Below are positions 3,011 through 18,159 of a stretch of DNA of 64,000 nt, in pieces. The position numbers and the translations under genes were made by a program. Below the pieces are notes generated by a model, which did not search any database, was not told the origin of the DNA, and saw only the letters and a program-made list of their open reading frames with translations. The stretch lies in the IMG/VR virus record IMGVR_UViG_3300046523_000117; one strand, given 5' to 3'. Each line of letters begins with the position of its first letter. Within the stretch, counting starts at the first letter, position 1. This DNA comes from a virus. Taxonomy: Duplodnaviria; Heunggongvirae; Uroviricota; Caudoviricetes.

Positions 3011-3013
3011 CAA

Positions 3014-3045: not shown

Positions 3046-3055
3046 TGGTTCGCGA

Positions 3056-4021: not shown

Positions 4022-4468
4022 TTATTTCAAACCGTTAAACAGTGTTTGCAGGTTTGGTAAATTCAATTCAGAAAACAGCCAGTCGTTAGCCTGATGGATA
4101 AAATCCCCCTCATAACCCGAGCCGATAAAATCCATGCCAACCAAACCCCAGAGGGATTCGATATTGATCCATTCCTCGGTTGGAATCGGGCGAACCTGCA
4201 TCACCGCCCCATAAACCCCTTGAGAGTTCACACGGGCGCGAAACGCTCTCTTTTGGCGTGCCAGTGTGGTTACTTCGATATCCGGGTTAGCTTCCGGGTT
4301 GTAGCAGTCCCCGCAAAGATCCTCAAAACTATAATTATCGTCTTCGACCAAAACGATTCGGAACAACCCGAGCATAAACGCCGAAGTCACACGGGTTACG
4401 TCGGTATTCTTACCCACTGTTTTCAAAACTTCTTTCGTTATGTTCTTGCCGTTGTCTGCATAGTTCAT
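4022..4468 (-). CDS. hypothetical protein (148 aa)
   Basis: minus-strand ORF. Confidence 0.55.
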   Translation of the reverse strand: MNYADNGKNITKEVLKTVGKNTDVTRVTSAFMLGLFRIVLVEDDNYSFEDLCGDCYNPEANPDIEVTTLARQKRAFRARVNSQGVYGAVMQVRPIPTEEWINIESLWGLVGMDFIGSGYEGDFIHQANDWLFSELNLPNLQTLFNGLK

Positions 4469-4546
4469 GATGTTGCCCCTGTTTTGGTTGGTGTATGGTC
4501 AGTATAAAGGGTTTGCATCAATTGTCAAACCCTTTTGCATCAAATT
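4469..4546 (-). promoter_or_regulatory. PeSL-like cassette, class A variant
   Basis: CCCCTGTTTTGGTTGGTGTATGGTCAGTATAAAGGGTTTGcatcaattgtCAAACCCTTTTGCATCAAATTTTAC. Confidence 0.6.
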
Positions 4547-4852
4547 TTACAAATGAGTATCCAGACCAGTGACGCGGGTAAATTCGCTTTGCAGCATGTC
4601 GCAATAGATACCCTCGACTTTGCAAACCATTTTCAGGTTAACGCCGCGAGTGTAATAGAATTCGATGTCATACAAATCCGCTGGGGTCAAGATGATTTTA
4701 ACCAAATTGATTTTATCTTTTGCGAAATTAGAAGGCATTTTGAACTGTAGGAAGTTTTCACCACCAACAAATTGCTTGACACCACACATTACAGCGAACT
4801 TGTGGCCGCCGAGTTGTTGGCGGATGGTTTCGGCTATGATCAATTTGGACAT
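4547..4852 (-). CDS. hypothetical protein (101 aa)
   Basis: minus-strand ORF. Confidence 0.5.
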   Translation of the reverse strand: MSKLIIAETIRQQLGGHKFAVMCGVKQFVGGENFLQFKMPSNFAKDKINLVKIILTPADLYDIEFYYTRGVNLKMVCKVEGIYCDMLQSEFTRVTGLDTHL

Positions 4853-4927
4853 TTTCGTATTCCCTGTTTTGGTTGGTGTGTGGTTAGTATAGCAGGGGTT
4901 GCATCAAATACAACCCCCTATTTGATT
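4853..4927 (-). promoter_or_regulatory. PeSL-like cassette, class A
   Basis: CCCTGTTTTGGTTGGTGTGTGGTTAGTATAGCAGGGGTTGcatcaaataCAACCCCCTATTTGATTTTATTTG. Confidence 0.6.
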
Positions 4928-5131
4928 TTATTTGTGGTTCAAACGATCCAGATAGCCAGACGCATAGTAATACGCGCCCATATTGCAAGGCTTGAACCCA
5001 ACCGGGTTTTCCAAATTGAATTTTTCGATACACGCGGCCAACCCCATGCCCGCGATATCAGCAGCGGCAGATTCCCAACCTTTCATGTAGTCCGGTTGAT
5101 GTTCGGTATGGGTTACAGTGCGAGGGGCCAT
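4928..5131 (-). CDS. hypothetical protein (67 aa)
   Basis: minus-strand ORF. Confidence 0.45.
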   Translation of the reverse strand: MAPRTVTHTEHQPDYMKGWESAAADIAGMGLAACIEKFNLENPVGFKPCNMGAYYYASGYLDRLNHK

Positions 5132-5210
5132 TTTTGAAACTCCGGTTTGGTTGGTGTATGATCAGTATAGCAGGGGTTGCATCAAATACAACCCCTTTCT
5201 ATCAAATTAT
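5132..5210 (-). promoter_or_regulatory. PeSL-like cassette, class A
   Basis: GTTTGGTTGGTGTATGATCAGTATAGCAGGGGTTGcatcaaataCAACCCCT. Confidence 0.6.
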
Positions 5211-5534
5211 TTAAAAATTGTAGTCGTAGAATTTGCGCGGGGCTTCGGCTAATACATGCTTGCCGTAGGCACTGTGAAAGTAACCATCTTTACGCAACCG
5301 GCAACGAATAACCGGGGCGGATTCATCACTGGCATAAATCCATTTTTGGGTTTGTTGGTTTGTACAATGACCAGCAAAGCCACCGGGGATAATGTTCGGC
5401 TTCCAGCTTGGATCTAGGGTTGCCGTCATAGAGCGGACTTCGATAGTCTTTTCGCTTATGACCTTGACAATTTCGAATGGTTGGATATCGCTGTAACCGT
5501 GCATGTTCGCGAATTTCATTTCTGTCATGTCCAT
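5211..5534 (-). CDS. hypothetical protein (107 aa)
   Basis: minus-strand ORF. Confidence 0.5.
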   Translation of the reverse strand: MDMTEMKFANMHGYSDIQPFEIVKVISEKTIEVRSMTATLDPSWKPNIIPGGFAGHCTNQQTQKWIYASDESAPVIRCRLRKDGYFHSAYGKHVLAEAPRKFYDYNF

Positions 5535-5625
5535 TTTATTTCTCCGGGGTTGTTTTGTTTCGATATGGTTAGTCTACGCCTAATTTGATGCAATGCAAGC
5601 ATTTGATGCAAATATTTTAAAATAA
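5535..5625 (-). promoter_or_regulatory. PeSL-like cassette, class B
   Basis: TTGTTTCGATATGGTTAGTCTACGCCTAATTTGATGCAATGCAAGCATTTGATGCAAATATTTT. Confidence 0.55.
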
Positions 5626-5749
5626 TTTTTGGCACATCAATTGCATAGACAAGAATCATGCCAACTCAAATCTCGCCCACCCTCCCTGTTTACCTCTGAG
5701 CCTCCCCAGTAACTATAGAATAGCACACTCAAAACAGAATACAACCCCG

Positions 5750-5780
5750 GAACAAAAATAAACCCGACTTTCGCCGGGTC
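5750..5780 (-). terminator. putative rho-independent terminator (minus-oriented)
   Basis: AAAAATAAACCCGactttcgcCGGGT on the plus strand, read as hairpin plus U-run on the minus strand after gene 5796..6005. Confidence 0.45.
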
Positions 5781-5795
5781 TATTGGTTTGATGCA

Positions 5796-6005
5796 TTACG
5801 CCGGTTTTTTGATGTCGTGGCCCCAGTCGTCAACCGTATTAGGCCCATCGTATACAGCCGCGTATAAGGTCGTAACCGCACTAACCCGGATACCAACCCC
5901 ACAACACAACGCAACGCCTACCAGTGGCTTGCGGCCCGCTTGCACGTTGTATTCCACCGGGCTGTTTAACTTCAATTCTTGCTTACAGTGTGGGCATTCC
6001 ATCAA
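5796..6005 (-). CDS. Zn-ribbon-like small protein (69 aa)
   Basis: CPHCK...CC cysteine pairs. Confidence 0.5.
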   Translation of the reverse strand: MMECPHCKQELKLNSPVEYNVQAGRKPLVGVALCCGVGIRVSAVTTLYAAVYDGPNTVDDWGHDIKKPA

Positions 6006-6008
6006 ATA

Positions 6009-6338
6009 CTACTCCGGGTTTTTGAAAACGTCCGGGTCTTCCCGTTCCATTTCTTCAAGGGTTTGAATCCGGGGAACCTTGATCCCGTTGGCGACAATAT
6101 AAACTTTCAGGGTCAGTTCATAGTCGTTATTGCGCAGGCTATTCAAATAAGCCTTTACAGAGTCGGACAACACGCCTTCGCCTTTCTCAATGAATTCATC
6201 CAGCTTTATCGCTGCATCTGTCATGGTCGGGCCTGTATAGATTTGGAAGCTTGCAACGTGCTGCATATCACCTTTAAGGTTTGGATAGAAAACATCTATA
6301 CAGGTTTTGTAGTAGCCGGGGGTTGATGTCATTGGCAT
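6009..6338 (-). CDS. hypothetical protein (109 aa)
   Basis: minus-strand ORF, 3 nt after the upstream gene. Confidence 0.5.
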   Translation of the reverse strand: MPMTSTPGYYKTCIDVFYPNLKGDMQHVASFQIYTGPTMTDAAIKLDEFIEKGEGVLSDSVKAYLNSLRNNDYELTLKVYIVANGIKVPRIQTLEEMEREDPDVFKNPE

Positions 6339-6341
6339 GGT

Positions 6342-6512
6342 TTATGCTCCAGTATATGGGGTCAGGTCGCGTTCATGAAAAGAGCCAGCATCACCGCCGA
6401 TAGTACCGAACCGGCAGCTATACCAGCCATTGGCACGAACTTCGGTGATAGTCAACCAAAAAGGACCATCAGCCATAACTTTGTCTTTAATCGAGAATTT
6501 GTTATCTAGCAT
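6342..6512 (-). CDS. hypothetical small protein (56 aa, below the ORF-track cutoff)
   Basis: Found by hand translation: MLDNKFSIKDKVMADGPFWLTITEVRANGWYSCRFGTIGGDAGSFHERDLTPYTGA. It fills the gap between a PeSL and gene 6009..6338. Confidence 0.4.
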   Translation of the reverse strand: MLDNKFSIKDKVMADGPFWLTITEVRANGWYSCRFGTIGGDAGSFHERDLTPYTGA

Positions 6513-6585
6513 GATGGCGGTTCCTTGTTGGTGTATGGTCAGTATAGCAGGGGTTGCATCAAATACAACCCCTTTGCATCAATTT
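6513..6585 (-). promoter_or_regulatory. PeSL-like cassette, class A
   Basis: CCTTGTTGGTGTATGGTCAGTATAGCAGGGGTTGcatcaaataCAACCCCTTTGCATCAATTTTTAC. Confidence 0.6.
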
Positions 6586-6828
6586 TTACAGGTATTCGGC
6601 CATATAGGCAGACAGTTCAACCAATACAGGCGTTTTATCGGGGCTATTGAACTGGATAAAATCGTTTGCGCAAAACACATAGACACTATGGTAAGTGTCG
6701 GTTTCGCGGGTCTTCCAGATATCTAAACGGATTTCCCGGCCTTGAGGCGTGACCATTTCAGCCTCAAAAATTTTATCCGCAAGCCCGGTACTGATTTGTT
6801 TCAGGGGTTTAACATCACCGATAGCCAT
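6586..6828 (-). CDS. hypothetical protein (80 aa)
   Basis: minus-strand ORF. Confidence 0.5.
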   Translation of the reverse strand: MAIGDVKPLKQISTGLADKIFEAEMVTPQGREIRLDIWKTRETDTYHSVYVFCANDFIQFNSPDKTPVLVELSAYMAEYL

Positions 6829-6913
6829 TGCGCAAATCCTTGTATTGGTTGGTGTATTAGGATTATGGCATCAACGGCAATAGCTGTCAAGCTATTTGAT
6901 GCAATTATTTCAA
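6829..6913 (-). promoter_or_regulatory. PeSL-like cassette, class B / degenerate
   Basis: TTGTATTGGTTGGTGTATTAGG...GCTATTTGATGCAATTATTTCAATT. Confidence 0.4.
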
Positions 6914-7117
6914 TTAAATTTCATGTTCGAATTTGTGCCCGACATTTTCCCAATAGGTCGCGGTGACCTCATAACCATCCTTCGCCGGGAAACGCTCTCT
7001 AAGGACATTTAACAGCATGATTGCGCTGGTTTCGGTAACCGCCGACCTTTCAGCCGTGGCGAATAGGTGACGGCCTTTATAACTTACGTTGATTTCGTAA
7101 TGCGATTGATTAGCCAT
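6914..7117 (-). CDS. hypothetical protein (67 aa)
   Basis: minus-strand ORF. Confidence 0.45.
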   Translation of the reverse strand: MANQSHYEINVSYKGRHLFATAERSAVTETSAIMLLNVLRERFPAKDGYEVTATYWENVGHKFEHEI

Positions 7118-7118
7118 G

Positions 7119-7409
7119 TCAAGCCCCTTTCATCCAGTTATTCAGTGTACGAATAGAATCACCACGCGGGCGACTCTGATAGGCAAACGAGTATTCTAAC
7201 CAGTCCCACGCCTTACCAGCACGAACCATGCCCATTAGGCGTTCCAGCTTACCGATACGACGATAAACCTTTGCAGTGACCAACCGGGGGCTTTCCCACT
7301 GATAACCATCCTCAGAACCCACACGCACGAACCCATGCTTTTCTAGCAGTGTGTCGCGTTCGGCTTCAAGGGCTTTGTAGTATGCGGTTCGAATGGTTGC
7401 CATGATCAA
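7119..7409 (-). CDS. hypothetical protein (96 aa)
   Basis: minus-strand ORF, 1 nt after the upstream gene. Confidence 0.5.
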   Translation of the reverse strand: MIMATIRTAYYKALEAERDTLLEKHGFVRVGSEDGYQWESPRLVTAKVYRRIGKLERLMGMVRAGKAWDWLEYSFAYQSRPRGDSIRTLNNWMKGA

Positions 7410-7464
7410 ATCCCTGTTTCGGTTGGTATGGGGTTAGTATAACCCCATTTGATGCAATTGCAAA
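7410..7464 (-). promoter_or_regulatory. PeSL-like cassette, variant
   Basis: CCCTGTTTCGGTTGGTATGGGGTTAGTATAACCCCATTTGATGCAATTGCAAATTAATTTTTAG. Confidence 0.5.
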
Positions 7465-7713
7465 TTAATTTTTAGGGATTTTGTCACCCGGCAAATACTG
7501 GCGAACAATCCCGTCATTGCACAACCGTACAAGGTTGCCCAGTTCGTCGCGGTATTGAGCTAAGCACGAATCGCCACGGATTTGACGGACTTTGTTAGTC
7601 ATGATCCGTTGATCATTGCGCGGCAGTTTGGCATAGATTTCAGTTGCATTTTTGTCGGCTATTGCTTGATCGACAAACTGAGTTAGCAACAGTTGTTTTT
7701 TGAATTCGTGCAT
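7465..7713 (-). CDS. hypothetical protein (82 aa)
   Basis: minus-strand ORF. Confidence 0.5.
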   Translation of the reverse strand: MHEFKKQLLLTQFVDQAIADKNATEIYAKLPRNDQRIMTNKVRQIRGDSCLAQYRDELGNLVRLCNDGIVRQYLPGDKIPKN

Positions 7714-7788
7714 TTCAAAACCCTCTTTTCGTTTGGTGTGATAGAAGTATAATAGGGGATTGCATCAAATGCAACCCCCTATTTGATT
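7714..7788 (-). promoter_or_regulatory. PeSL-like cassette, class A
   Basis: TCGTTTGGTGTGATAGAAGTATAATAGGGGATTGcatcaaatgCAACCCCCTATTTGATTTTATTTTG. Confidence 0.6.
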
Positions 7789-8118
7789 TTATTTTGGGTC
7801 TTCGACTGGTTTATGTTTACCAGTAGTCGAAAGAATCCGCACGTTTTCAACTTCGGATATCGGTACAGTTTCACCCTTGCGGATTTCGTTCACGCCGTCC
7901 TCTTTCGTGATTTTGTTCGGCATGTATTCACTAATGGTATAGTGCGCAGCCTTCGGCAGTTCCACACGACACACGACAGTCATAACCCCATCAGGTTTGT
8001 GGCGATTCAAAGTGCTAACCCCTATATAACGGGCAGCCTCCTTTATGGCGCCTTCACGGGTGTCAGCAACACCCCAGCCGTAGGCGGTTGATGCATAATA
8101 GTGGTGATTCATTTTCAA
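7789..8118 (-). CDS. hypothetical protein (109 aa)
   Basis: minus-strand ORF. Confidence 0.5.
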   Translation of the reverse strand: MKMNHHYYASTAYGWGVADTREGAIKEAARYIGVSTLNRHKPDGVMTVVCRVELPKAAHYTISEYMPNKITKEDGVNEIRKGETVPISEVENVRILSTTGKHKPVEDPK

Positions 8119-8495
8119 ACCCCTTTGATTTTCTGGATTGCACCATTGGAAAAGTAAACCACAATATTAGATAACAGTTCCCCGATATCATCCTTTGTAT
8201 TTGGTTCACGCACATAAAAATCAATGATAGCCCGCCCATCGTCTGAGAGTTCCACGCCTTGGGTGAATTGTGACCAGTCAACAGGCGACCACAAATCAGT
8301 ATCAGACCAATTATCGCCAGTTAGATCAGTTACACGGGCGATATTGATATGGGTGTCTTTATCGCGATTGGTCAGGCTTACACGCTCGCCAACTTCGATT
8401 GTTACACGCTTGCGACCAACTTCCTTGCGAGCCGCTTCACGTATTTGAAAGCATTCTTTAGTGCTAGGCTTCCAAACGTTATTGATGATCGACAT
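8115..8495 (-). CDS. hypothetical protein (126 aa)
   Basis: minus-strand ORF with a 4-nt start/stop overlap with the downstream gene. Confidence 0.5.
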   Translation of the reverse strand: MSIINNVWKPSTKECFQIREAARKEVGRKRVTIEVGERVSLTNRDKDTHINIARVTDLTGDNWSDTDLWSPVDWSQFTQGVELSDDGRAIIDFYVREPNTKDDIGELLSNIVVYFSNGAIQKIKGV

Positions 8496-8569
8496 TTCAA
8501 AAATTCCCTGTTTCGGTTGGTGTATGATCAGTATAATAGGGATTGCATCAAATGCAACCCCTATTTGAT
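8496..8569 (-). promoter_or_regulatory. PeSL-like cassette, class A
   Basis: CCCTGTTTCGGTTGGTGTATGATCAGTATAATAGGGATTGcatcaaatgCAACCCCTATTTGATTTAAAT. Confidence 0.6.
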
Positions 8570-8788
8570 TTAAATCTGGTGTGGTGTAAACGTCATACCT
8601 TTAGCCGGACCATCAACCCCCATGCAAACAGATTGGGCCTTGATTGCAGCAGCTTGGGCCTGTTCGAAGGTATCAAACTGCATAGCCAGCTTGATAGAAC
8701 CCATGCAAGCGGTCCCCCACGTATCGCACCACTCATGCAAATAATCAGAACCGGATATCCCATAGGTACGCTTTACTACATAAGCCAT
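8570..8788 (-). CDS. hypothetical protein (72 aa)
   Basis: ORF trimmed to MAYVV, preceded by AAAAGGGGtttgatc. Confidence 0.5.
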   Translation of the reverse strand: MAYVVKRTYGISGSDYLHEWCDTWGTACMGSIKLAMQFDTFEQAQAAAIKAQSVCMGVDGPAKGMTFTPHQI

Positions 8789-8863
8789 GATCAAACCCCT
8801 TTTCGTTTGGTGTGATAGCAGTATAGCAAGGGGTTGTATTTGATGCAACCCCCTTTGATGCAA
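8789..8863 (-). promoter_or_regulatory. PeSL-like cassette, class A with flipped loop
   Basis: TTTCGTTTGGTGTGATAGCAGTATAGCAAGGGGTTGtatttgatgCAACCCCCTTTGATGCAATTATTTTT. Confidence 0.6.
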
Positions 8864-9073
8864 TTATTTTTCCCAATCATGCAAAGTTGTGGTGATTTCC
8901 TCAAACCCATTACCTGCATCATCAAACCAGCACCGCACAACCGCACGACGCCCAGCTATGACCGTTTCGATTTTCGGGTCTTCAACCAAACCGGAAACAT
9001 CACCCAACACTTCAACCGATACGCGATTGGTCCAATTGGTGATTTTTACAAACTTCACGATTTGGTTTGACAT
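8864..9073 (-). CDS. hypothetical protein (69 aa)
   Basis: minus-strand ORF. Confidence 0.45.
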   Translation of the reverse strand: MSNQIVKFVKITNWTNRVSVEVLGDVSGLVEDPKIETVIAGRRAVVRCWFDDAGNGFEEITTTLHDWEK

Positions 9074-9148
9074 TTTGTAGTCCCTGTTTCGGTTGGTGTA
9101 AGATCATTCTATAGGGGTTTGCATCAAATTGCAAACCCCTATTTGATT
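9074..9148 (-). promoter_or_regulatory. PeSL-like cassette, class A (11-bp stem)
   Basis: CCCTGTTTCGGTTGGTGTAAGATCATTCTATAGGGGTTTGCAtcaaatTGCAAACCCCTATTTGATTTTATTTG. Confidence 0.6.
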
Positions 9149-9598
9149 TTATTTGTGGTTCTTTTTGGCTTCGGTCAGGTCAGCAATCAATTTGTTTTGT
9201 TGGTTGACTTCCCATTCAATTTGGTCTACCACATAAACCGCTTGACCTTTTTCGTTTGCACCGTTTTGAACTTGACGGGCCTTCGCTTGTGCTATCCGCA
9301 AATCATTGTAACGGGTTGCGTTTTGGACAGTAGCCCAGCCAGCGGTGTCGCCTTCAAACTTGACACATACACGCAATTTGCCAGTGATAACCATGTAACC
9401 GGTTGGGTTAGTTGCTTTGAAAGCTTCCAGCCGTGCTATGTAGCCTTGCGATTCGGTAATCATGCCGTTAATCATGTCAATCATTGGGTTTACCTTCTGG
9501 TTTAGGTGTTTCAGGCACAGGGCGAACGTGGCTGCATAGTTGTCACCCGGTTGAATGATTTCTTTAGTCAACTTGTGGGCTTGGGCAAATGCGTTCAT
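9149..9598 (-). CDS. hypothetical protein (149 aa)
   Basis: minus-strand ORF. Confidence 0.55.
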   Translation of the reverse strand: MNAFAQAHKLTKEIIQPGDNYAATFALCLKHLNQKVNPMIDMINGMITESQGYIARLEAFKATNPTGYMVITGKLRVCVKFEGDTAGWATVQNATRYNDLRIAQAKARQVQNGANEKGQAVYVVDQIEWEVNQQNKLIADLTEAKKNHK

Positions 9599-9690
9599 GT
9601 TCGTATTCCCTGTTTCGGTTGGTGTAAGGTCAGTATACGCCTAATTTGATGCAATGCAACCCATTTGATGCAATTATTTTAAAATAGTTG
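9599..9690 (-). promoter_or_regulatory. PeSL-like cassette, class B
   Basis: TCCCTGTTTCGGTTGGTGTAAGGTCAGTATACGCCTAATTTGATGCAATGCAACCCATTTGATGCAATTATTTTAAAATAG. Confidence 0.55.
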
Positions 9691-9771
9691 TGGGAAATAT
9701 TCGTGCCAATACCTTTTTGGGGTCGTCAATCCATTTTCTCATATTTTTCTAGGGGATGTCAATACCAACAG

Positions 9772-9800
9772 ACAAAATAAAACCCGGACAATGCCGGGTC
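9772..9800 (-). terminator. putative rho-independent terminator (minus-oriented)
   Basis: ACAAAATAAAACCCGGacaatgCCGGGT on the plus strand, read as hairpin plus U-run on the minus strand after gene 9810..10061. Confidence 0.5.
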
Positions 9801-9809
9801 AAGGTGTTG

Positions 9810-10061
9810 TTACATCACTCGGTTTATCGGATCAATACTAAACAATACTTGCTCATGTAGTGCGGTTTGACAGTCTTGCAGAGTCTTGAATCGATGTTCA
9901 AAGATGGTAACGCCGAGTTTATCCTTGACTGAATAACCGTTATCATGTGCATCGATAACAAAGGTCAGGCAATGCGTCCCCAACATATCAAAGTTAATAA
10001 CAACGTCGGCATGGTAACGCCCGACATATAAGCCACGTAACAAGATCCTATCAATACGCAC
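9810..10061 (-). CDS. hypothetical protein (83 aa)
   Basis: minus-strand ORF. Confidence 0.5.
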   Translation of the reverse strand: MRIDRILLRGLYVGRYHADVVINFDMLGTHCLTFVIDAHDNGYSVKDKLGVTIFEHRFKTLQDCQTALHEQVLFSIDPINRVM

Positions 10062-10069
10062 AAAACCCC

Positions 10070-10282
10070 CTAGAACGCTGTCAGGCGAACGAAAGAACCA
10101 CCCTTTACCAGATCATGTACCAGTTCAGCGCCTTGCACAGCCAGTTCATAGGAACCGTCAATTTGCAGCCAGTGAGTTGAACCCTCATGATAGCTATCGG
10201 TAATCACCCCGATAGTTTCCATGTCTTGGTTGGTTCTGGCTTCTTCGCCCATCAACGCCTTGTGATTATATGTCATGTTCAA
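10070..10282 (-). CDS. hypothetical protein (70 aa)
   Basis: minus-strand ORF. Confidence 0.45.
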   Translation of the reverse strand: MNMTYNHKALMGEEARTNQDMETIGVITDSYHEGSTHWLQIDGSYELAVQGAELVHDLVKGGSFVRLTAF

Positions 10283-10476
10283 ACCTCCTTTACAACAAAC
10301 GCATCAAAGGGATAATCATGCGAAACGTTACCGGTCTTGGTTTCGATAGTCAAGGTGATCCACCCGTCGTGATCCTCGAAACAACGGCTTACTAGTTTGC
10401 CCATGACCAGTTCGCCACTAACTACCATAGCGATGATGTTACCAATTTTTGCATCAACCGCGTTTATCAATTGCAT
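10279..10476 (-). CDS. hypothetical protein (65 aa)
   Basis: minus-strand ORF with a 4-nt overlap. Confidence 0.45.
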   Translation of the reverse strand: MQLINAVDAKIGNIIAMVVSGELVMGKLVSRCFEDHDGWITLTIETKTGNVSHDYPFDAFVVKEV

Positions 10477-10545
10477 GTTTGTCGCTCCCTTGTTGGTGAT
10501 TAGATTCTAGCAAGGGGCTGCAATTGATGCAACCCCTATTTGATG
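10477..10545 (-). promoter_or_regulatory. PeSL-like cassette, class A with flipped loop
   Basis: CCCTTGTTGGTGATTAGATTCTAGCAAGGGGCTGcaattgatgCAACCCCTATTTGATG. Confidence 0.55.
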
Positions 10546-10716
10546 TTATTCGATAGACCAACCGGCAATATCAGACATCAACCATTTAGCATCAGACCGG
10601 CCAGACTTGCGGTTAATGATGTTGATGGATTCGCCGTTGAATTCCACCCGGTACAGAATCAACGAATAAGAATTTGTCCCGGCATCCTCAAACAGCAAAC
10701 GAAAGAGTATAGGCAT
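10546..10716 (-). CDS. hypothetical small protein (56 aa, below the ORF-track cutoff)
   Basis: hand translation MPILFRLLFEDAGTNSYSLILYRVEFNGESINIINRKSGRSDAKWLMSDIAGWSIE. Confidence 0.4.
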   Translation of the reverse strand: MPILFRLLFEDAGTNSYSLILYRVEFNGESINIINRKSGRSDAKWLMSDIAGWSIE

Positions 10717-10718
10717 GA

Positions 10719-10937
10719 TTATTCCCCCAAAAACTTTGCATAGGCAGCTTCACGTTTAGCGGTGCATATGTCTTTTGAATCGGTCAATTGGACTTTTTCA
10801 GCACAGCCAGCCGAATAGCCAGCCTGAAACGTTTTATAGCCATTCGGTTGGGTTGTTGCATTGAATGGGTTTTCTTTATAGTAACCCAGCGAGCCGGCCC
10901 GATAAGCGTATTCAAAGATTTCTTTTTGACTGGCCAT
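10719..10937 (-). CDS. hypothetical protein (72 aa)
   Basis: minus-strand ORF. Confidence 0.45.
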   Translation of the reverse strand: MASQKEIFEYAYRAGSLGYYKENPFNATTQPNGYKTFQAGYSAGCAEKVQLTDSKDICTAKREAAYAKFLGE

Positions 10938-11014
10938 TTCGATATTCCCTGTTTCGGTTGGTGTGATAGCAGTATAAAAGGGATTGCATCAAATTACAAC
11001 CCCTTTCTATCAAA
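10938..11014 (-). promoter_or_regulatory. PeSL-like cassette, class A
   Basis: TTCCCTGTTTCGGTTGGTGTGATAGCAGTATAAAAGGGATTGcatcaaattaCAACCCCTTTCTATCAAATTATTTT. Confidence 0.6.
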
Positions 11015-11326
11015 TTATTTTCCGGCTTTAGTCATCATGACCAGTTCGTTATGGTTACGGCAGATCATGGCCGCGTTAGGGATTTGATTCATCCAGTCCT
11101 CAAACCCATGCTTGACAAACCGAGATTTCATCACATCCAGAACCGCGAATTTCATTTCTTCAACGGTTGGGGATTCTTCCAGCACAGCCCGACGATAATC
11201 ATCGGCAGTTGCATAACCGTTGGTTACAAAGTAACGCATACGATCATTAGCCGACGCCTTCTTACCTTCAAACCATGCCGCTTTGACTTGGGTTTGTATG
11301 TTCGCTGGGAGGCTGGAAAGTTTCAT
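11015..11326 (-). CDS. hypothetical protein (103 aa)
   Basis: minus-strand ORF. Confidence 0.5.
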   Translation of the reverse strand: MKLSSLPANIQTQVKAAWFEGKKASANDRMRYFVTNGYATADDYRRAVLEESPTVEEMKFAVLDVMKSRFVKHGFEDWMNQIPNAAMICRNHNELVMMTKAGK

Positions 11327-11405
11327 GTCATTAACCCTGTTTCGGTTGGTGTATGGTCAGTATAGCCCCTGTACATTCAGAGTCAAGCAATTTGATGCAA
11401 TTATT
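11327..11405 (-). promoter_or_regulatory. PeSL-like cassette, class B
   Basis: ACCCTGTTTCGGTTGGTGTATGGTCAGTATAGCCCCTGTACATTCAGAGTCAAGCAATTTGATGCAATTATTTT. Confidence 0.55.
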
Positions 11406-11409
11406 TTAA

Positions 11410-11445
11410 GAAAAGAAAAAGCCCCTAGAATCAGGGGCTTATTTT
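11410..11445. terminator. rho-independent terminator
   Basis: AAAAGAAAAAGCCCCTAGAATCAGGGGCTTATTTTAG. Confidence 0.7.
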
Positions 11446-11833
11446 AGAATTCTTCTTTTCGTTCCATATCCCGGAAATATCCTTGACTGTCAAGGGTTTG
11501 ATATGCATTAGAGCCGTATCTAGGATCAGTTTCAATCCAGTGCATAGGGTCAAGCTTACCGCCTGCATTCACGAATAACCGGATTCTTTCGGCCAATGCT
11601 TCGGCCTTGTTAGATGATTCTTCGCGAAGGTCTTCAAAAAACACCATGCCGTCGCAGTCCTCACCGCCTTCTATACGCTTAGCAGCATCAAAGCGGGCAG
11701 TATGTATCCACCGTTGGCCGTTAGGGGCTTCGGCTTCAATGTAATAGCGTTCGGCTATGAATGCTTCGCCGTCCTCAGTTAAACCGTAGTTAAACAGATC
11801 AGATGCAACCCCGATTTCTAAAGCCATGATCAA
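11444..11833 (-). CDS. hypothetical protein (129 aa)
   Basis: minus-strand ORF. Confidence 0.55.
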   Translation of the reverse strand: MIMALEIGVASDLFNYGLTEDGEAFIAERYYIEAEAPNGQRWIHTARFDAAKRIEGGEDCDGMVFFEDLREESSNKAEALAERIRLFVNAGGKLDPMHWIETDPRYGSNAYQTLDSQGYFRDMERKEEF

Positions 11834-11895
11834 AACCCCTTTGTTTGGTGTATGGTTATTCTAACAGACCACATCCAACCGTCAAGGGTTTGATG
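11834..11895 (-). promoter_or_regulatory. PeSL-like cassette, degenerate (last copy)
   Basis: CCCCTTTGTTTGGTGTATGGTTATTCTAACAGACC...GGGTTTGATGCAATTATTTTCAAATT. Confidence 0.4.
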
Positions 11896-12111
11896 CAATT
11901 ATTTTCAAATTAGCCGATAGATTGCAACACCTACCGGAATGCAATAGAAAGGACACGCCAGAACAAACCAACCCCAGCGAGTTCTAGACGGTATAGGAGG
12001 CGTGATATTACGGCACCAGCCTATCACCAGCAAAACCAATCCAATGGCAGCCATCGACGCCATAGAGCTGTTAAAATTCATATGTTAATAAACCCTCAGA
12101 ATCGCCCAAAT

Positions 12112-12476: not shown

Positions 12477-12742
12477 TATTGACCACGCATCCCAATATCA
12501 TGGGGAATAAAAGAATCACCGATAACCCGGCATTCATATAGGTGAACCAATCCACCATTAGGCAGCTTGTAATAGTTCATATTGTGTCGGGTACAGTCAA
12601 ACTCCTTATTGATGTTAGCCAATAAGAAAGCCTTGTTATCAGCAGTATAATGCCCATAACCAAACAAACCACAGGAACGCCATAGAGCTTTACCGTGTAG
12701 CTTGATACGGGTTAATTTTTTAGGTGATAGATCCATGATCAA
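12476..12742 (-). CDS. hypothetical protein (88 aa)
   Basis: minus-strand ORF in the overlapping chain. Confidence 0.45.
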   Translation of the reverse strand: MIMDLSPKKLTRIKLHGKALWRSCGLFGYGHYTADNKAFLLANINKEFDCTRHNMNYYKLPNGGLVHLYECRVIGDSFIPHDIGMRGQ

Positions 12743-12924
12743 CCCCAGATAATCATTAGAGAGTCATACACAACATATACGTTTAGGCATACGGATACAT
12801 TCAAACCAATGAGTGAACCACGCCAGACAATCAAATTAGGTTTGTCTTGAGCTACCCACAAACCAATCCCGGATAGAATGATAATGACCAATGCTGCAAT
12901 GACCAGATAGAACGCCAAATCCAT
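12739..12924 (-). CDS. small membrane protein (61 aa)
   Basis: hydrophobic; first gene of the overlapping chain. Confidence 0.45.
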   Translation of the reverse strand: MDLAFYLVIAALVIIILSGIGLWVAQDKPNLIVWRGSLIGLNVSVCLNVYVVYDSLMIIWG

Positions 12925-13372
12925 GATGAATCCCCTATCAGTGAGTTACTAGACAATAGATTAGCACATTAGAAACAGAATACAAGGGTTATTTGCATCT
13001 AAATCAACCCATATATTGGGATTGATCAAAATATAATCTATATCGATTTGGAAGGTATTTTATAGGAGGAATATCAGGGGAATAGATATAGGATAGGGAA
13101 TCCACGCGGGGCTTATAGAATAAGGCTTATGGTTGAATGAATCGATGGGGAATAGGTTAGGAATTGATGGTGTATCGATTTCAATACAGTGGAATGAAAA
13201 CGTTACAGTAATTTTAGGGGTTTGTTCATGCTTCCTAGTGAGTGTGTTATATTTTGATGCATTTATTTTTGCATCAAATCCTGCAATAGCATCAAATTGC
13301 AGCAGATTTCACCACAAGTCCCTAGCATGATTCGAAATAATTCACTAGTATTCCATCAAATTGCAGCAGATT
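12925..13372. other. 448-bp non-coding region with short direct repeats and a 9-bp-arm palindrome
   Basis: GGGAATAG x3; TTAGGAATTGATGG; ATCAAATTGCAGCAGATTTCACC x2; TTTGATGCAtttattttTGCATCAAA at ~13246..13273. Confidence 0.6.
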
Positions 13373-13603
13373 TCACCGATACACGGTTTTGGTCTGATTC
13401 CCCGGCAGCATCAGCCACACAATAAACGATACAACAGACAGAACCATCATACCGATATAGACCATTCCCCCGTGGTGGATAATTTGATCCATTTGAACTA
13501 GGCGTAAATGCGGTGGGGTTCTATCCCATGCTGCGAATATACCTAAGAACGCCATAGGCATACTACTAACTACCAGAAAGATTGCGATATAAAAGAGTTT
13601 CAT
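13373..13603 (-). CDS. small membrane protein (76 aa)
   Basis: two hydrophobic helices. Confidence 0.5.
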   Translation of the reverse strand: MKLFYIAIFLVVSSMPMAFLGIFAAWDRTPPHLRLVQMDQIIHHGGMVYIGMMVLSVVSFIVWLMLPGNQTKTVYR

Positions 13604-13666
13604 AAGTCACCGTTTGGGTTAGGAGGTTTGATTAGATGATAGACTACCAAAACAGAATGTCAAGTA

Positions 13667-13695
13667 AAACAAAAAGCCCCGGTTAAGGGGCTTTG
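13667..13695. terminator. rho-independent terminator
   Basis: CAAAAAGCCCCggttaaGGGGCTTTG. Confidence 0.65.
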
Positions 13696-13713
13696 ACTAC
13701 CTATCAGGATCTA

Positions 13714-14211
13714 TTAGACTGGTGTACTCGGTACGGTTCCTGCTTTATAAATCAGTTCCCGCTGGCCGCGACCTTCTGGGAGTTTTTCACCGTATCGGGT
13801 CACAATGCCTTGAGCTTCCAGATAGTTGACAGCGTTCCGGGTTTGGATTCTATCAGCTTTCATTGCTTCGGTCACTTCGGCAATGGTGAAATAAGTAATT
13901 TCTTTCGTTTGCAACGCTTCAATGATAGCGTTACGGATTTCGAGTTGTTCGGCGCTTGGGTTACGACCTGCCGAGCCTTTAGAGTCATTGGCCGGGTCAC
14001 CAGCTCCATTCGGTTGGGTTGCAGCCTTGGAAGCCCTTCCAGAAGCTTTAGGAGGCTTCGAGCCTTGAGCCCCGCCGATACTCGCCAAAGCTTCTTTGGC
14101 TTTGATCAGTGCCGATTCAGCGGAGTCTACCGCCATGTTTGCGAGTTCCAGAACGTTAACCACGTTAGCGGCTTGGGTATTCTGGGTTGCTGCTTTAGAT
14201 ACTTGGCGCAT
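13714..14211 (-). CDS. putative DNA-binding protein (Ala/Lys-rich N-terminal region, C-terminal winged-helix-like region), 165 aa
   Basis: the low-complexity KAAT/KPPKASGRASKAA region is histone-H1-like; no confident family assignment. Confidence 0.5.
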   Translation of the reverse strand: MRQVSKAATQNTQAANVVNVLELANMAVDSAESALIKAKEALASIGGAQGSKPPKASGRASKAATQPNGAGDPANDSKGSAGRNPSAEQLEIRNAIIEALQTKEITYFTIAEVTEAMKADRIQTRNAVNYLEAQGIVTRYGEKLPEGRGQRELIYKAGTVPSTPV

Positions 14212-14412
14212 TTTTGAAACTCCTAAACAATCAAATTGGGTTGGTCGGTTGATAATGCGAACCTAGGCAATTGATGATTAGTGCGTGAATCTTGTTACAA
14301 GTTCCTTTAAATCTGTATTCCCTTTCGGTGATGTCATTATGGTCATGGGGTTCTATGGTGTCAAGCCCCAGAACAAAATATTTTTGATTCAATTCCTAGG
14401 ATTGGATCACAT

Positions 14413-14446
14413 ACGAAAAAGCCCCGGTTTCCCGAGGCTTTTCAAT
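14413..14446. terminator. rho-independent terminator (imperfect stem)
   Basis: GAAAAAGCCCCGGtttcCCGAGGCTTTTC. Confidence 0.55.
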
Positions 14447-14458
14447 GCTTTACAGTTT

Positions 14459-14836
14459 TTACTTTTCGAACGTGGTGATATGTACAACCCGATCAAAGCT
14501 AAAACCGTCTTCCCTTGCTTTCTTGATTGCAGCCACTTCGGCTACCGCATCCGTTAACGCTTGAACCTCATACGTTACTTCTACCGGTTCGCCCCACTTT
14601 CTATGCTGTATTTCCCTGCATTCTATCGTAATGCGTTTATAGACCTTTGTAGGTCGTTCTAGCCTTGGTGCTGGAAGCTTCGCCACCAACGGACCTTTAT
14701 GTTTCCCTAGCTTCTTATCCCGCTTAGCTCGTTTGGCTTGTCGCTTAGCTTCTTCGGCTTCAAGCTTTTGTTGGTGTGCGTATGCTTCCAAATTAGCCCA
14801 CGCTTTTATTTCGGCTTCCAGATCCTTATAACTCAT
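14459..14836 (-). CDS. basic coiled-coil protein (125 aa)
   Basis: minus-strand ORF; KR-rich. Confidence 0.5.
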   Translation of the reverse strand: MSYKDLEAEIKAWANLEAYAHQQKLEAEEAKRQAKRAKRDKKLGKHKGPLVAKLPAPRLERPTKVYKRITIECREIQHRKWGEPVEVTYEVQALTDAVAEVAAIKKAREDGFSFDRVVHITTFEK

Positions 14837-15400
14837 TGCTAACCCCTATATGGTTTGGTTGGTGTATGCCCATTCTATACCATAGAGCATACAAGTCAAG
14901 CATATGATGCAATTAATTTGTACTGATTCAATCAAACCATAACACTACTAGGATAGGAACAGAATCAATATGATGCATTGGGTAGGGTTTGATGCAATCG
15001 GCCCGTGTGCGTGACTACAGGGGCTTACGTGGTGTATTGGATATGATGCAAAGGATTAGGAATTGATGCAATGCGATGGGGACTATTGTGTACCGGATGA
15101 ATGGTAATAGAATCGACTAGTGTATTAGGAATTGATATGGTAGACTAGTGATGGTGGGAGGACTATTGTGTTTCGATAGGGGGTGCTAGTGTGGGAGGGG
15201 TGCCAGGGGTGCCGGGGAGGGGTGAAAATTAAGGTTCCATACCTATGGATTCCTTGGCAGTTTAGTGGATGTGAGTAAGTTATTAGACACCCTCCCCGAT
15301 TCCAAAAAATTTCCATATGTACAGAAATCGACAAAAAGTTTCCTAGATGTCGATTCCAAAAAAATTTTCCACCAAAAAATTCGGCTTCAAAACTTTTTCC
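14837..15400. other. 564-bp non-coding region with iteron-like repeats, a G-quadruplex-capable G-rich tract and an inverted repeat
   Basis: ATATGATGCA x3; TTAGGAATTGAT x2 (a third copy at 13165); GGACTATTGTGT x2; GGGAGGGGTGCCAGGGGTGCCGGGGAGGGG at 15190..15225; GAAATCGACA...TGTCGATTCC; GATTCCAAAAAA(A)TTT(T)CCA x2. Confidence 0.6.
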
Positions 15401-15643
15401 CTATACTTTCTCAGGGGCCAGCAAGCATTCCGGGGTATCATACTTTTCAGCAATCTCCCGAATGGTTTCGATGTATTCATCCGATGGCAGATGCTGGTAG
15501 TAAGCAAGCAATCTCGTTATATGCTCCCGGAACCTTTCATCCCCTCGCTTGAGGAAATACATCATATCCATGATCGCATATTCCCGCATGGAGCTTTCCG
15601 GGGATTCTTGGAGCTTCATGATTTTCTTGCTCCGACATCCCAT
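15401..15643 (-). CDS. hypothetical protein (80 aa)
   Basis: minus-strand ORF. Confidence 0.5.
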   Translation of the reverse strand: MGCRSKKIMKLQESPESSMREYAIMDMMYFLKRGDERFREHITRLLAYYQHLPSDEYIETIREIAEKYDTPECLLAPEKV

Positions 15644-15843
15644 CCGATGATAGCTCTTTCGAACCCCGGCTGGGCATCTTGGTAGTTCATTGAAAACTTT
15701 GGACCCCTCGCCCCGCAGTCATGGCATTCTACCCAACATTTACCCCAATGATGATTAGGGGAGGTTTTACCTTGACAGAATGGGCATACCGATAATACTG
15801 GGTACTTGGCTTCGATTGCATCTAAAGCACTGCCTATGCACAT
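15616..15843 (-). CDS. Zn-ribbon-like hypothetical protein (75 aa)
   Basis: CPFCQ...CHDC. Confidence 0.45.
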   Translation of the reverse strand: MCIGSALDAIEAKYPVLSVCPFCQGKTSPNHHWGKCWVECHDCGARGPKFSMNYQDAQPGFERAIIGWDVGARKS

Positions 15844-17489: not shown

Positions 17490-17674
17490 ATCGCCTTTAT
17501 ATGATCTTGAATCAATCGCTTGACAAATTTTGAACTGGCCGTATCAATCAAATCAAGGTGTGGAATATAACCTTCGAATTCTTCTTTGGTAGTCCCGTCC
17601 GCAACCATGTCTTGGAACATGGCCCGCAGGTCTGCCATATGCTGAATGATTTCTTGATTCATTATTTGATCCAA
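17486..17674 (-). CDS. hypothetical protein (62 aa)
   Basis: minus-strand ORF. Confidence 0.4.
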   Translation of the reverse strand: MDQIMNQEIIQHMADLRAMFQDMVADGTTKEEFEGYIPHLDLIDTASSKFVKRLIQDHIKAM

Positions 17675-18159
17675 TTCTTATACGGATTATCTGATAGGTT
17701 TGAATTGTAGTATTTCGGATCACCTGTAACTTCTTTGGTAACCCATGCCGGGATTATGATCGATTCTGTTTCGGAAGTCAACTCGACTTCTGCTACGATC
17801 AGTCCGGTGTTGTCACCGTGGAAAATATCAATTTCCCAGATTTTGTCATTGAGGTTTACGACATACCTTGACTTGTCGATGATTCCGGTGCATAGCAACA
17901 TCAACTGCTTGGCTTCTTCGACATCAATTTCCTTTTCCCATTCAAACCGGGATAGGCCGTCATCCGTCGATTTACCCTTTACAGTAATGAATCCACGATA
18001 GCTACCCAATCGGATTCGAACAGTTCGATTGGGATCTTGGCTCAAATAACCTTGGGTAATCCTGATTAGTGTCAATTGGCTGGGATTAACTTGCTTACCC
18101 AGCATCGTGCTATCAACCAAAAACTTACGTTCGATTTCTATCATTGCTCTGCGAACCAT
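17662..18159 (-). CDS. CYTH-domain (triphosphate tunnel metalloenzyme, CyaB/ThTPase-like) protein
   Basis: N-terminal EIERKFLV ExExK signature, ~165 aa size and acidic beta-strand pattern typical of CYTH. Confidence 0.6.
   Translation of the reverse strand: MVRRAMIEIERKFLVDSTMLGKQVNPSQLTLIRITQGYLSQDPNRTVRIRLGSYRGFITVKGKSTDDGLSRFEWEKEIDVEEAKQLMLLCTGIIDKSRYVVNLNDKIWEIDIFHGDNTGLIVAEVELTSETESIIIPAWVTKEVTGDPKYYNSNLSDNPYKNWIK

Follow-up and report, generated by a model that had tools for sequence, protein, structure and literature searches.

Conserved non-coding regions around a winged-helix gene block in an uncultured T4-like phage: candidate transcription punctuation and a conserved C-run element

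The early genes of T4-like phages are served by small intergenic cassettes, the promoter-early-stem-loops (PeSLs), in which an AT-rich upstream stretch precedes a sigma-70 promoter with a polyG/polyC stem-loop between its -35 and -10 elements; the stem-loop terminates upstream transcription, and the cassettes mediate modular shuffling (PMC2839356, PMC4122927). In T4, Rho-dependent sites have long been inferred between the immediate-early and delayed-early genes, the rut (Rho utilization) sites being unstructured and sometimes C-rich (PMC2988021). The T4 origins oriF and oriG combine a middle promoter with a downstream AT-rich unwinding element and form an R-loop (PMC3016281). Here, these systems are compared with two long non-coding regions found between positions 12,925 and 15,400 of the virus record IMGVR_UViG_3300046523_000117, a 64,000-nucleotide stretch of DNA (referred to below as the window). 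Judged from its gene content, which is described in the last section, the window belongs to an uncultured T4-like phage akin to the phages Astolliot and Milchi. The left region, NC1 (12925-13372), and the right region, NC2 (14837-15400), flank a block of three genes encoding a variable 125-amino-acid (aa) protein, a 165-aa winged-helix protein and a 76-aa membrane-type protein. The transcribed (gene) strand is the minus strand, read from right to left, and features are given on this strand unless the + strand is named.

Two non-coding regions and their conservation

Both regions had been described in an initial annotation as unusually long, iteron-rich and non-coding. The lengths of 448 bp for NC1 and 564 bp for NC2 are correct, the regions being bounded by the minus-strand open reading frames (ORFs) 12739-12924 and 13373-13603, and 14459-14836 and 15401-15643, respectively. 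Their non-coding nature is borne out by the ORF list, with no conserved ORF within either. Other gaps of more than 700 bp that a simple gene caller left in the window were discarded as not being real non-coding regions; the caller misses several small genes.

For the repeats, 500 dinucleotide-preserving shuffles of the two regions were used as the reference, a comparison that had been put forward together with the annotation. Repeated 10-mers numbered 31, versus 1.2 ± 1.6 in the shuffles, and repeated 12-mers within the two regions 15, versus 0.13, with 0 of 500 shuffles as high in either case. Inverted repeats as a class were at chance level (8 10-mers versus 4.4; 92 of 500 shuffles). The regions had also been thought to share short repeats, which holds in that two 12-mers are common to both (versus 0.06; 7 of 500 shuffles), but the likeness is weak because it comes down to essentially one 12-13-mer, and for the same reason the gaps are not the flanking repeats of an insertion.

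All of the individual words that had been listed were found within a few bases of the positions given for them. On the + strand, TTAGGAATTGAT occurs three times, at 13157, 15056 and 15125 (13165, 15056 and 15127 in the initial annotation), ATATGATGCA three times, at 14902, 14968 and 15041, and GGACTATTGTGT twice, at 15080 and 15160. Only the copy number of GGGAATAG was wrong, two copies (13078 and 13148) being present where three had been counted. A direct repeat reported as a 23-mer does have two copies, at 13290 and 13354, but is in fact a 24-mer, CATCAAATTGCAGCAGATTTCACC. The palindrome TTTGATGCA-N8-TGCATCAAA was located at 13253-13278 (previously ~13246), and the inverted repeat GAAATCGACA/TGTCGATTCC at 15324-15333 and 15348-15357. 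Both 24-bp repeats and the palindrome are conserved in relatives.

Relatives of the locus were obtained by protein-guided retrieval as uncultured contigs (designated by L-numbers; L030 is Milchi). Megablast and blastn searches of the region against 50,697 phage records returned nothing but a coding match to the siphovirus SYP, and a metagenome scan with protein alignment added one short contig and no more. A common layout was seen, consisting of a long non-coding region, a variable gene of ~100-126 aa, the winged-helix gene, a membrane gene of 70-82 aa, a second long non-coding region, and small genes with promoter cassettes. The right gap spans 410-1200 bp in relatives and the left gap 449-588 bp. 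Identity to the closest loci is 73-76% for NC2 (L001, L002) and 64-72% for NC1, on par with the flanking genes; NC2 is conserved across the 9 loci compared, and a 19-mer is identical in three phages. With nhmmer, a profile of NC2 matched L021, L023, L004, Astolliot and Milchi (E-values 1e-19 to 1e-31), in Astolliot and Milchi over the 5' half only. The corresponding profile of NC1 matched L021 only, and gave nothing in the searched 45 kb of Astolliot, 6 kb of Milchi and 12 kb of L004. Position, length and sequence are thus conserved in more than 12 related contigs, the repeats are non-random, and a winged-helix gene lies between the gaps; for these reasons, the data support the view that both gaps are functional, selected cis-regions and not junk.

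The 5' half of NC2, comprising its first ~210 bp on the gene strand (15400-15190), is referred to as element X. Homology of X to Astolliot emerged only by reading the intergenic DNA of that phage and by nhmmer. A 379-bp intergenic region of Astolliot (2316-2694) has the same A/T blocks, the box CCACTAAAC, the palindrome, TTAATTTCA and the C runs, and Milchi likewise. Neither phage has a winged-helix homologue, nor are their genomes enriched in TTGCATCAA, the word around which most of the repeats are built. As X is present in these two phages, it is older than the three-gene block, with NC1 travelling together with the winged-helix and membrane genes. The earlier suggestion that the two regions are the boundaries of an inserted module can therefore be kept in part: the winged-helix gene, the 76-aa membrane gene and NC1 travel as a unit that is absent in L004, Astolliot and Milchi, but NC2 precedes the block and does not depend on it, since Astolliot and Milchi possess its 5' half. 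With X predating the block and NC1 moving with the winged-helix and membrane genes, the gaps do not represent the two ends of one insertion. A check for absence of the block from related phages had likewise been proposed; it is this unit that is missing from the three just named, and the common layout is present in other, uncultured relatives.

Composition, promoter words and a transcription-punctuation reading

Rho loading sites are long, untranslated and unstructured tracts in which C lies well above G. The composition of both gaps was therefore followed along the transcribed strand in 150-nt windows. The segment 15220-15071 in NC2 contains 62 C and 14 G (+48), and 13200-13051 in NC1 contains 47 C and 11 G (+36); these are the first and second most extreme values of C minus G in the 64 kb (mean -3.8, S.D. 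8.3), with C/G ratios over 150 nt of 4.4 and 4.3, respectively. In each of the relatives these positions again rank first and second, also at loci with an unalignable NC1, and X is by far the top window for C minus G within the 88 kb of Astolliot examined. Predicted folding energies of the transcribed strand, per 120 nt, are -7 to -10 kcal/mol in NC2 and ~-11 kcal/mol in NC1, versus ~-25 kcal/mol in the flanks. Both tracts accordingly have the makeup expected of rut sites, at least as far as can be read from the sequence: 80 nt or more of untranslated RNA, C well above G, and little structure. No intrinsic terminator follows the genes that precede NC2 (15401-15643) and NC1 (13373-13603), in contrast to the two remaining block genes, each of which has one, and conserved matches to the sigma-70-type consensus are found at the 3' ends of both gaps.

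Our preferred reading, which is held tentatively and against which a number of points are set out below, is that both gaps serve as transcription punctuation in the early, hyperplastic, PeSL-rich part of the genome, each with a Rho-type stop, orphan promoter-box sites and a restart promoter. The C-rich, G-depleted and nearly structure-free untranslated tract would load Rho and stop transcripts coming from the hairpin-less genes 15401-15643 and 13373-13603; several copies of TTGCATCAA, the early-promoter word, would stand as orphan sites; and a sigma-70-type promoter would then restart transcription for the next gene. Both Rho-dependent termination and promoter activity at the gaps are predictions that we infer from sequence features. 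A Rho-type stop would explain why composition is conserved where sequence is not. In common with Rho-dependent terminators such as lambda tR1 and the T4 early sites (PMC2988021), the gaps offer 150-300 nt of untranslated, C-rich/G-poor and unstructured sequence after a hairpin-less gene and upstream of the next unit. They differ in their invariant words and conserved C-run tract, which are not expected of rut sites, and no pause site is defined here.

The C-rich, G-poor region of NC2 (14960-15190) includes the extreme of C minus G for the 64 kb and contains an imperfect duplication of ~80 bp, with ACACAATAGTCC at 15171 and 15091 and ATCAATTCCTAA at 15136 and 15067. Four orphan TGCATCA boxes of NC2 (15070, 15050, 14996 and 14977) have no -10 element after them. 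In NC1, the conserved G-poor tract occupies 13000-13250 and includes CTGTAACGTTTTC (13208-13196), ATCAATTCCTAA (13168-13157) and GATCAATCCCAATATATGGG (13027-13008).

At the 3' end of NC2, the predicted early promoter and leader of the 125-aa gene occupy 14837-14925, with a TGCATCA box (14911-14905), a -35 element TTGACT (14899-14894), a -10 element TAGAAT (14877-14872), the leader CATACACCAACC (14868-14857), a GGGG Shine-Dalgarno sequence and an ATG at 14836. Two words at this promoter, TTGCATCAAATGCTTGAC and TGGTATAGAATG, are invariant among relatives. The equivalent segment of NC1 (12925-12990) is predicted to hold the promoter and leader of the 61-aa gene 12739-12924, with a -35 element TTGTAT (12985-12980), a 16-nt spacer and a -10 element TAATCT (12963-12958); here CTTGnATTCTGTT is invariant, and the -10 element keeps the form TAnnCT in close relatives.

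The repeats of the gaps could be traced to the same class of promoters. Most of the repeated words share a core, TGATGCA on the + strand or TTGCATCAA on the gene strand, and TTGCATCAA is the commonest 9-mer of the window (31 + 21 copies) and not specific to the gaps. Within the window, TGCATCAA occurs 35 times and TTGATGCA 27 times, where ~1 copy would be expected by length and ~5 by local composition (order-3 Markov). Between 1 and 16 kb, copies of TTGCATCAA sit in intergenic cassettes of ~75 bp before small genes, and two kinds of cassette can be distinguished. In the first, an AT-rich stretch is followed by the box TTGCATCAAAT, a -35 element TTGACN, 16-17 nt, and TAnAAT; in the second, a hairpin, GGGGTTGCA-TCAAA-TGCAACCCC, with its 5-nt loop in either orientation, is followed by an extended -10 element, TGCTAGAAT or TGCTATACT. 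Counted with strict patterns, there are 5 box-plus--35 cassettes and 11 hairpin cassettes. Both kinds end in the leader CATACACCAACCgAAACAGGG and a start codon, with the leader CATACACCAACC after hairpin cassettes, and in the hairpin promoters before small genes at 1-12 kb TTGCATCAA forms the inner stem and loop. Since the core is genome-wide and belongs to early-promoter cassettes, the supposed iterons are for the most part copies of the early-promoter word of the clade.

At least 11 hairpin cassettes were located at 1-12000 (1677, 2614, 4918, 5195, 6572, 7779, 8561, 8853, 9139, 10536 and 11003). Their loop reads either TCAAA or TTTGA with the stems unchanged, as if flipped by recombination between the arms, and several promoters carry two boxes, 15-22 bp apart. 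Three long relative contigs (L017, L019 and L021) end exactly inside PeSL-type hairpins. The same cassettes are found in Astolliot, but with TTGTA arms, and L004 has TTGTATCA instead. A further enrichment of the word was noted in the coding strand of genes at 16000-64000, where TTGATGCA(A) has 16 copies versus 2.4 ± 1.3 in synonymous-codon shuffles; these genic copies (e.g. at 20588, 28935, 35725, 51711, 57565 and 61724, minus strand) mostly read xTT-GAT-GCA, encoding I/F/V-Asp-Ala. They are without a -10 element downstream and so are no evident internal promoters. Intragenic copies of TTGATGCAA were considered as middle promoters resembling MotA boxes and were rejected, there being no -10 element after them.

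The cassettes of the window are close counterparts of PeSLs (Arbiol et al. 2010, PMC2839356; Comeau et al. 2014, PMC4122927), being small intergenic cassettes of a hyperplastic region with an AT-rich upstream part, a sigma-70-like promoter, a Shine-Dalgarno sequence and a start codon. They also have the G-run/C-run stem-loop between -35 and -10, and they flank small orphan genes whose content is shuffled. NC1 and NC2, unlike PeSLs, are 6-7 times longer than the ~75-bp cassette, most of their boxes are without a -10 element, and X has no PeSL counterpart. The promoter part of a PeSL is nevertheless present at the 3' ends of both, in NC2 at 14911-14837 and in weaker form in NC1 at 12985-12925, and is conserved in relatives. 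Neither promoter has the stem-loop that 11 cassettes at 1-11 kb carry; all that NC1 offers in its place is an AT-rich palindrome 270 bp upstream.

Several points weigh against punctuation as a full account of the two gaps. Rho loading sites are normally not sequence-conserved, and termination alone does not explain the invariant words, namely CCACTAAAC and the 19-mer common to three phages, or a C-run tract that is conserved in position. X is unique in the window and in the part of Astolliot examined, which is easier to reconcile with one cis-acting site than with a generic terminator. The orphan boxes of NC2 and the cluster of boxes in NC1 are conserved without a -10 element and have a role other than starting transcription. 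The promoter calls are consensus matches, and the whole scan did not rise above shuffles (19 versus 15.3 ± 3.6). Finally, C-richness of the transcribed strand is by the same token G-richness of the other, and the relevant strand is assumed.

Element X and the alternatives to punctuation

The first part of X (15300-15400) is made up of AnTn blocks (GGAAAATTTTTTTGG and similar, ~5 copies) that are conserved in all relatives, including Astolliot and Milchi, and contains the inverted repeat GGAATCGACA (15357-15348) and TGTCGATTTC (15333-15324). The core then comprises a G box, CGGGGAGGGTG (15298-15288), TCTAATAAC (15287-15279), the box CCACTAAAC (15268-15260), which is invariant or one base off in 14 sequences, an imperfect palindrome, TCCATAGGTATGGA (15249-15236), and TTAATTTTCA (15232-15223). 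It is followed by the C-run tract (15190-15222), whose + strand is the G-quadruplex (G4)-capable tract GGGAGGGGTGCCAGGGGTGCCGGGGAGGGG. This G-run tract had been singled out in the initial annotation as atypical for the phage, and when both strands of the 64 kb are searched for the canonical G4 pattern (four runs of G3+ separated by N1-7), it is indeed found at 15193-15222 only. With four G3+ runs and 1-7-nt loops on the + strand, a pattern conserved in relatives, it would be expected to be capable of G4 formation. The tract lies 35-45 nt after the CCACTAAAC box in all 12 of the 12 metagenomic relatives that carry the box, and in Astolliot and Milchi it takes the form of three C5 runs plus a more distant run. 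X occurs once within the window and once within the 88 kb of Astolliot examined, and pattern scans of viral contigs for X beyond the clade produced chance matches in coding DNA only. X also contains a possible weak promoter with partial conservation, TTGGAA-17-TAACTT; the A/T blocks are upstream of it, and the sequence downstream has ~40% GC and then becomes C-rich.

A 62-aa ORF (15128-15316, minus) with an ATG start runs through X. It was rejected as a small protein: a Shine-Dalgarno sequence is missing, L001 does not keep the start, and in Astolliot the frame is a different one. Its richness in proline and histidine results from the C-rich, G-poor strand, and the long stop-free frames in X result from G depletion. 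In the Milchi record, two small coding sequences are annotated over X and are probably spurious. Directly upstream of X, a homing-type endonuclease gene is found in two relatives, Milchi (L030:2282-2995) and L021 (L021:1872-2471), the former encoding an HNH endonuclease and the latter a 199-aa protein with a weak AP2-domain match. Two independent relative assemblies start within the C-run tract (L015:1-40 and L022:1-30); one of these opens with Nextera adapter sequence, and the other is a 179.7-kb contig. Contig ends at C-runs and hairpins may reflect sequencing dropout and repeat-induced breaks, or a physical end. A nick-associated motif from the Milchi paper was also set aside, because the nicked phage is Rembedalsseter (motif WACTRTGAC), and Milchi shows no modification.

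One alternative to punctuation takes X as a single-copy cis-acting DNA site, either a replication origin or some other genome-level signal acting through a G-quadruplex or i-motif, and, separately, the winged-helix protein with its box clusters as a global regulator, peculiar to the clade, that acts on the early promoters with hairpins. We regard this combination as possible, but doubtful.

An origin proper is a similarly unlikely explanation of the locus. The initial annotation had seen in it the classical signature of a replication origin, or of a partition or packaging site, but no specific hallmark of these was found. Two forms of origin were considered: a T4-type origin, at which a promoter transcript forms an R-loop, and an iteron-type origin, with the winged-helix protein as initiator on the repeats. 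In either, the A/T blocks would unwind and the G tract would stabilize the open or hybrid structure. In favor are the uniqueness of X, its non-coding nature and its conservation between genera of the clade, the A/T blocks adjoining the sole G4-capable tract, which is kept in position, and the possible promoter inside X; the homing-endonuclease genes upstream of X in Milchi and L021 are as expected beside a sequence that cannot change. T4 origins share no motif, and oriE, with which RepEB is associated, depends on an early promoter and has 12-nt direct repeats of unproven role (PMC3016281). The features in common with them are a T4-like phage, a non-coding stretch with direct repeats, A/T blocks, a promoter-like site and a small DNA-binding-type gene nearby. 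In contrast to the T4 origins, however, the repeats here are uneven, no homology to repEA or repEB was found, nor was it searched for, no MotA-type promoter is defined, the candidate unwinding element is unexceptional (the lowest-GC 40-mers of the gaps, at 20-25% GC, are equalled in at least 10 other places of the window) and RNA made in the direction of the genes is C-rich, which is the least favorable composition for a stable R-loop. No convincing + strand promoter was found upstream of the G tract; a candidate, TTGTGT-16-TAGAAT (15087-15114), was rejected because in L001 and L024 an insertion of 11 bp interrupts it.

Iteron-type origins of plasmids and phages have a Rep protein, three or more near-identical 17-22-bp iterons at ~22-bp spacing, DnaA boxes and AT-rich repeats. 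The likeness here is that a DNA-binding, winged-helix gene lies next to the direct and inverted repeat cluster of NC1. The repeats themselves are irregular and heterogeneous, with 2-3 copies of 11-24 nt, 19-80 bp apart within a region and ~1900 bp between regions, and their core is the promoter word, present more than 50 times elsewhere and dispersed across the window. The 165-aa protein has one winged-helix domain and no match to a Rep family, and the X-bearing phages Astolliot and Milchi are without it. Neither gap has a DnaA box (TTATCCACA, 1 mismatch allowed) or an IHF consensus, and cumulative GC skew does not turn at the gaps. Thus, a regular array, a Rep-family gene, and DnaA boxes with a distinct AT-rich region are all missing. 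With no DnaA or IHF sites, no exceptional AT tract, no turn in skew and uneven repeats, the origin reading is left unsupported.

A further alternative concerns the repeats only and is compatible with punctuation. The gene at 13714-14211 (minus), predicted at the outset to encode a DNA-binding type of protein, does so according to AlphaFold2 and Foldseek: in the model of the 165-aa product, a helix near the N terminus (residues 20-45) is joined by a disordered linker to a winged-helix domain at the C terminus (~85-160; AlphaFold2 confidence score, pLDDT, ~90). Foldseek matches to the C-terminal domain, of similarly weak score throughout, included a plasmid centromere binder, RTP (replication terminator protein), ROK, MarR, MepR, ArsR and PadR, and Pfam and PHROG gave weak matches only (SWIRM, Ren-like), with no Rep family. 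The model therefore indicates a DNA-binding protein, the kind of which is not told by the fold. Among 27 homologues, down to 43% identity, residues 120-132, DR(I/V)Q(T/V)RNAVNYLE, are invariant or nearly so and by inference form the recognition helix.

The box cluster of NC1 (13250-13377) adjoins this gene and its membrane-gene partner, and is found together with the rest of NC1 only in genomes that have the winged-helix gene. It consists of the 24-bp direct repeats GGTGAAATCTGCTGCAATTTGATG (13377-13354 and 13313-13290), a related copy, TTGCAGGATTTGATGC, and the palindrome TTTGATGCA-N8-TGCATCAAA (13278-13253), the last being the only strongly structured piece (z ~-4, both strands). The cluster resembles the core of the promoter hairpins (TGCA-TTTGA-TGCA), and in L022 and L023 2-4 boxes are kept at its position, though the rest is unalignable. 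Genomes that carry the gene all use TTGCATCA boxes (0.6-1.9 per kb), while L004, Astolliot and Milchi, which are without it, use TTGTATCA or none. Given this co-occurrence and the position of the clusters beside the gene pair, the winged-helix protein is the obvious candidate to bind palindromic TTGCA-N5-TGCAA sites, clustered in NC1 and present also inside the hairpin promoters.

On this basis, the gaps might be operator arrays, at which the protein, dimeric through its N-terminal helix, would bind sites of the type TTGCA-N5-TGCAA and regulate the block from a site before its own promoter and from the clusters in both gaps. The clusters could also be a high-affinity sink or nucleation point for a regulator of hairpin promoters by which early genes are switched off or on. 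From centre to centre, the half-sites are separated by 10 bp, or one helical turn, and the palindrome falls between -35 and -10 in at least 11 promoters. Four related sites lie in NC1 directly downstream of the gene pair, in a cluster retained in L022 and L023 without alignable flanks; a box with one mismatch, TTGAATCAA, lies upstream of the gene's own -35 element; and the presumed recognition helix is near-invariant across the homologues. The nearest folds are those of dimeric operator-binding repressors of the MarR, PadR and ArsR types, which share with this system the fold of residues ~85-160 and palindromic sites that have half-sites one helical turn apart and overlap promoters, but to whose sequence families the protein does not belong, and to which its modelled N-terminal coiled helix and long disordered linker appear foreign. 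Co-occurrence of gene and box may, on the other hand, merely mirror phylogeny. The hairpins also work in the absence of the protein, since Astolliot lacks it and yet has the same hairpin promoters. In addition, many hairpins combine a TTGTA arm with a TGCAA arm; the resulting G-U pair exists in the transcribed strand alone, which points to an RNA hairpin and not to a protein-binding site. Operator arrays are thus also considered possible, although unlikely.

That one or both gaps encode a non-coding RNA, either a small regulatory RNA or a sponge for Rho (through its C-rich RNA) or for RsmA/CsrA (through a GGA-rich + strand RNA), is improbable. C-run RNA is the best known ligand of Rho, the sequence conservation of the gaps equals that of neighboring genes, X may contain a promoter, and the + strand has 10 GGA triplets in NC1 and 14 in NC2. 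The strand bias of GGA is inconsistent in relatives, however, and a sponge for RsmA/CsrA was rejected for this reason and for want of an Rfam match. More generally, no Rfam E-value below 0.007 was obtained; what weak matches there are fall on the terminator hairpin (14411-14490), and the best of all, 31.8 bits versus a gathering score of 106, is outside both gaps. RNAalifold, applied to the core of X and to 200 nt, predicted no consensus structure for the transcribed strand (0 kcal/mol) and 4 pairs (-1.75 kcal/mol) for the other. A candidate hairpin after the box was paired in 63% of cells, equal to column shuffles and with no covariation (in the hand-drawn hairpin used for this count the outer pairs are one column off, which does not affect the result). 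Neither a + strand promoter nor a terminator was found.

Least probable of all is that the gaps are functionless scars of modular shuffling, i.e. decayed cassettes and gene remnants at the borders of an inserted block. Shuffling has taken place in this part of the genome and, as mediated by PeSLs, is documented (PMC2839356), the slot of the 125-aa gene is taken by a shorter, demonstrably unrelated ORF in L001 and by shorter ORFs also in L021-L023, the unit of winged-helix gene, membrane gene and NC1 is missing from L004, an unrelated siphovirus encodes a homologue of the 125-aa protein, and the boxes at 15070 and 15050 followed by ATACACCAC resemble a cassette that lost its -10 element. Against this, length, block order and 72-76% identity are kept in both gaps though the genes of relatives are equally diverged, X is significant by nhmmer even in another genus, the compositional extreme persists where the sequence does not, and the gaps have just one 12-13-mer in common.

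Gene setting, phage identity and significance

Within the block, the variable slot after NC2 is occupied by the 125-aa gene (14459-14836, minus), whose product has no family match. In relatives, the slot holds an unrelated 101-aa ORF in L001 and ORFs of 98-102 aa in L021-L023, which were not compared with it. A 60%-identical homologue of the 125-aa protein was found in the unrelated 107-kb Pseudomonas siphovirus vB_PpS_SYP, and another in a 101-kb IMG/VR contig (L005), indicating exchange between phage families and supporting a Pseudomonas host. The spacer between this gene and the winged-helix gene (14212-14458) has an intrinsic terminator (14440-14415), then a predicted promoter (TTGACA at 14364-14359 and CATAAT at 14341-14336, with TTGAATCAA upstream of the -35 element) and a leader of ~120 nt. 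The spacer after the winged-helix gene (13604-13713) likewise has an intrinsic terminator (13694-13673) followed by a predicted promoter (TTGACA at 13663-13658 and TATCAT at 13641-13636). The gene of the 76-aa hydrophobic protein (13373-13603, minus) always comes after the winged-helix gene in relatives, and no intrinsic terminator lies behind it.

Two genes upstream of NC2, a 75-aa protein (15616-15843, minus) matches the Lar restriction-alleviation family (Pfam, 29.5 bits versus a cut-off of 28.6; PHROG 599). A CYTH-domain gene (17662-18159, minus) lies a few kb upstream of X, and its placement is the same in L017, L019, L020, L023 and Astolliot (4886-5365), making it a useful synteny anchor for X.

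Nearly all long ORFs of the window are on the minus strand. PHROG matches assigned T4-type replication and nucleotide genes among its proteins, including a DNA polymerase (59636-62158), UvsX (58535-59629), a gp41-type helicase (56854-58296) and topoisomerase subunits (51651-53477 and 50356-51654), together with two RNA ligases, a NAMPT gene and a NadR-type gene. The large topoisomerase subunit has 75% identity to those of the Pseudomonas phages Astolliot (P. syringae) and Milchi (P. poae), and less than 50% to all others. Directly after the topoisomerase genes, a homologue of the anti-sigma-70 protein AsiA is encoded at 50002-50292 (minus; Pfam PF09010, 37.1 bits versus a cut-off of 25). No MotA-like activator was found among the window ORFs tested, and no tRNA genes in the window. 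An identical protein is on record for a 181-kb metagenome contig. It is on the T4-type gene set, the topoisomerase identity to Astolliot and Milchi and the AsiA homologue that the assignment to a T4-like Pseudomonas phage is based, Pseudomonas being the probable host genus.

The layout of early transcription and the starts of replication are poorly known in T4-like phages outside the T-even group. Should the punctuation reading be true, the two gaps would provide sequence-defined candidates for the Rho-dependent stops long inferred between the early gene classes of T4, and they show one promoter-cassette word reused as orphan sites. With the winged-helix protein and the box clusters comes a candidate for a regulator of PeSL-type promoters that can be tested. 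Of greater interest is X, as a unique and strongly conserved non-coding element with the sole G4-capable tract of the window, and because it is present in two cultured phages, Astolliot and Milchi, it is directly testable.

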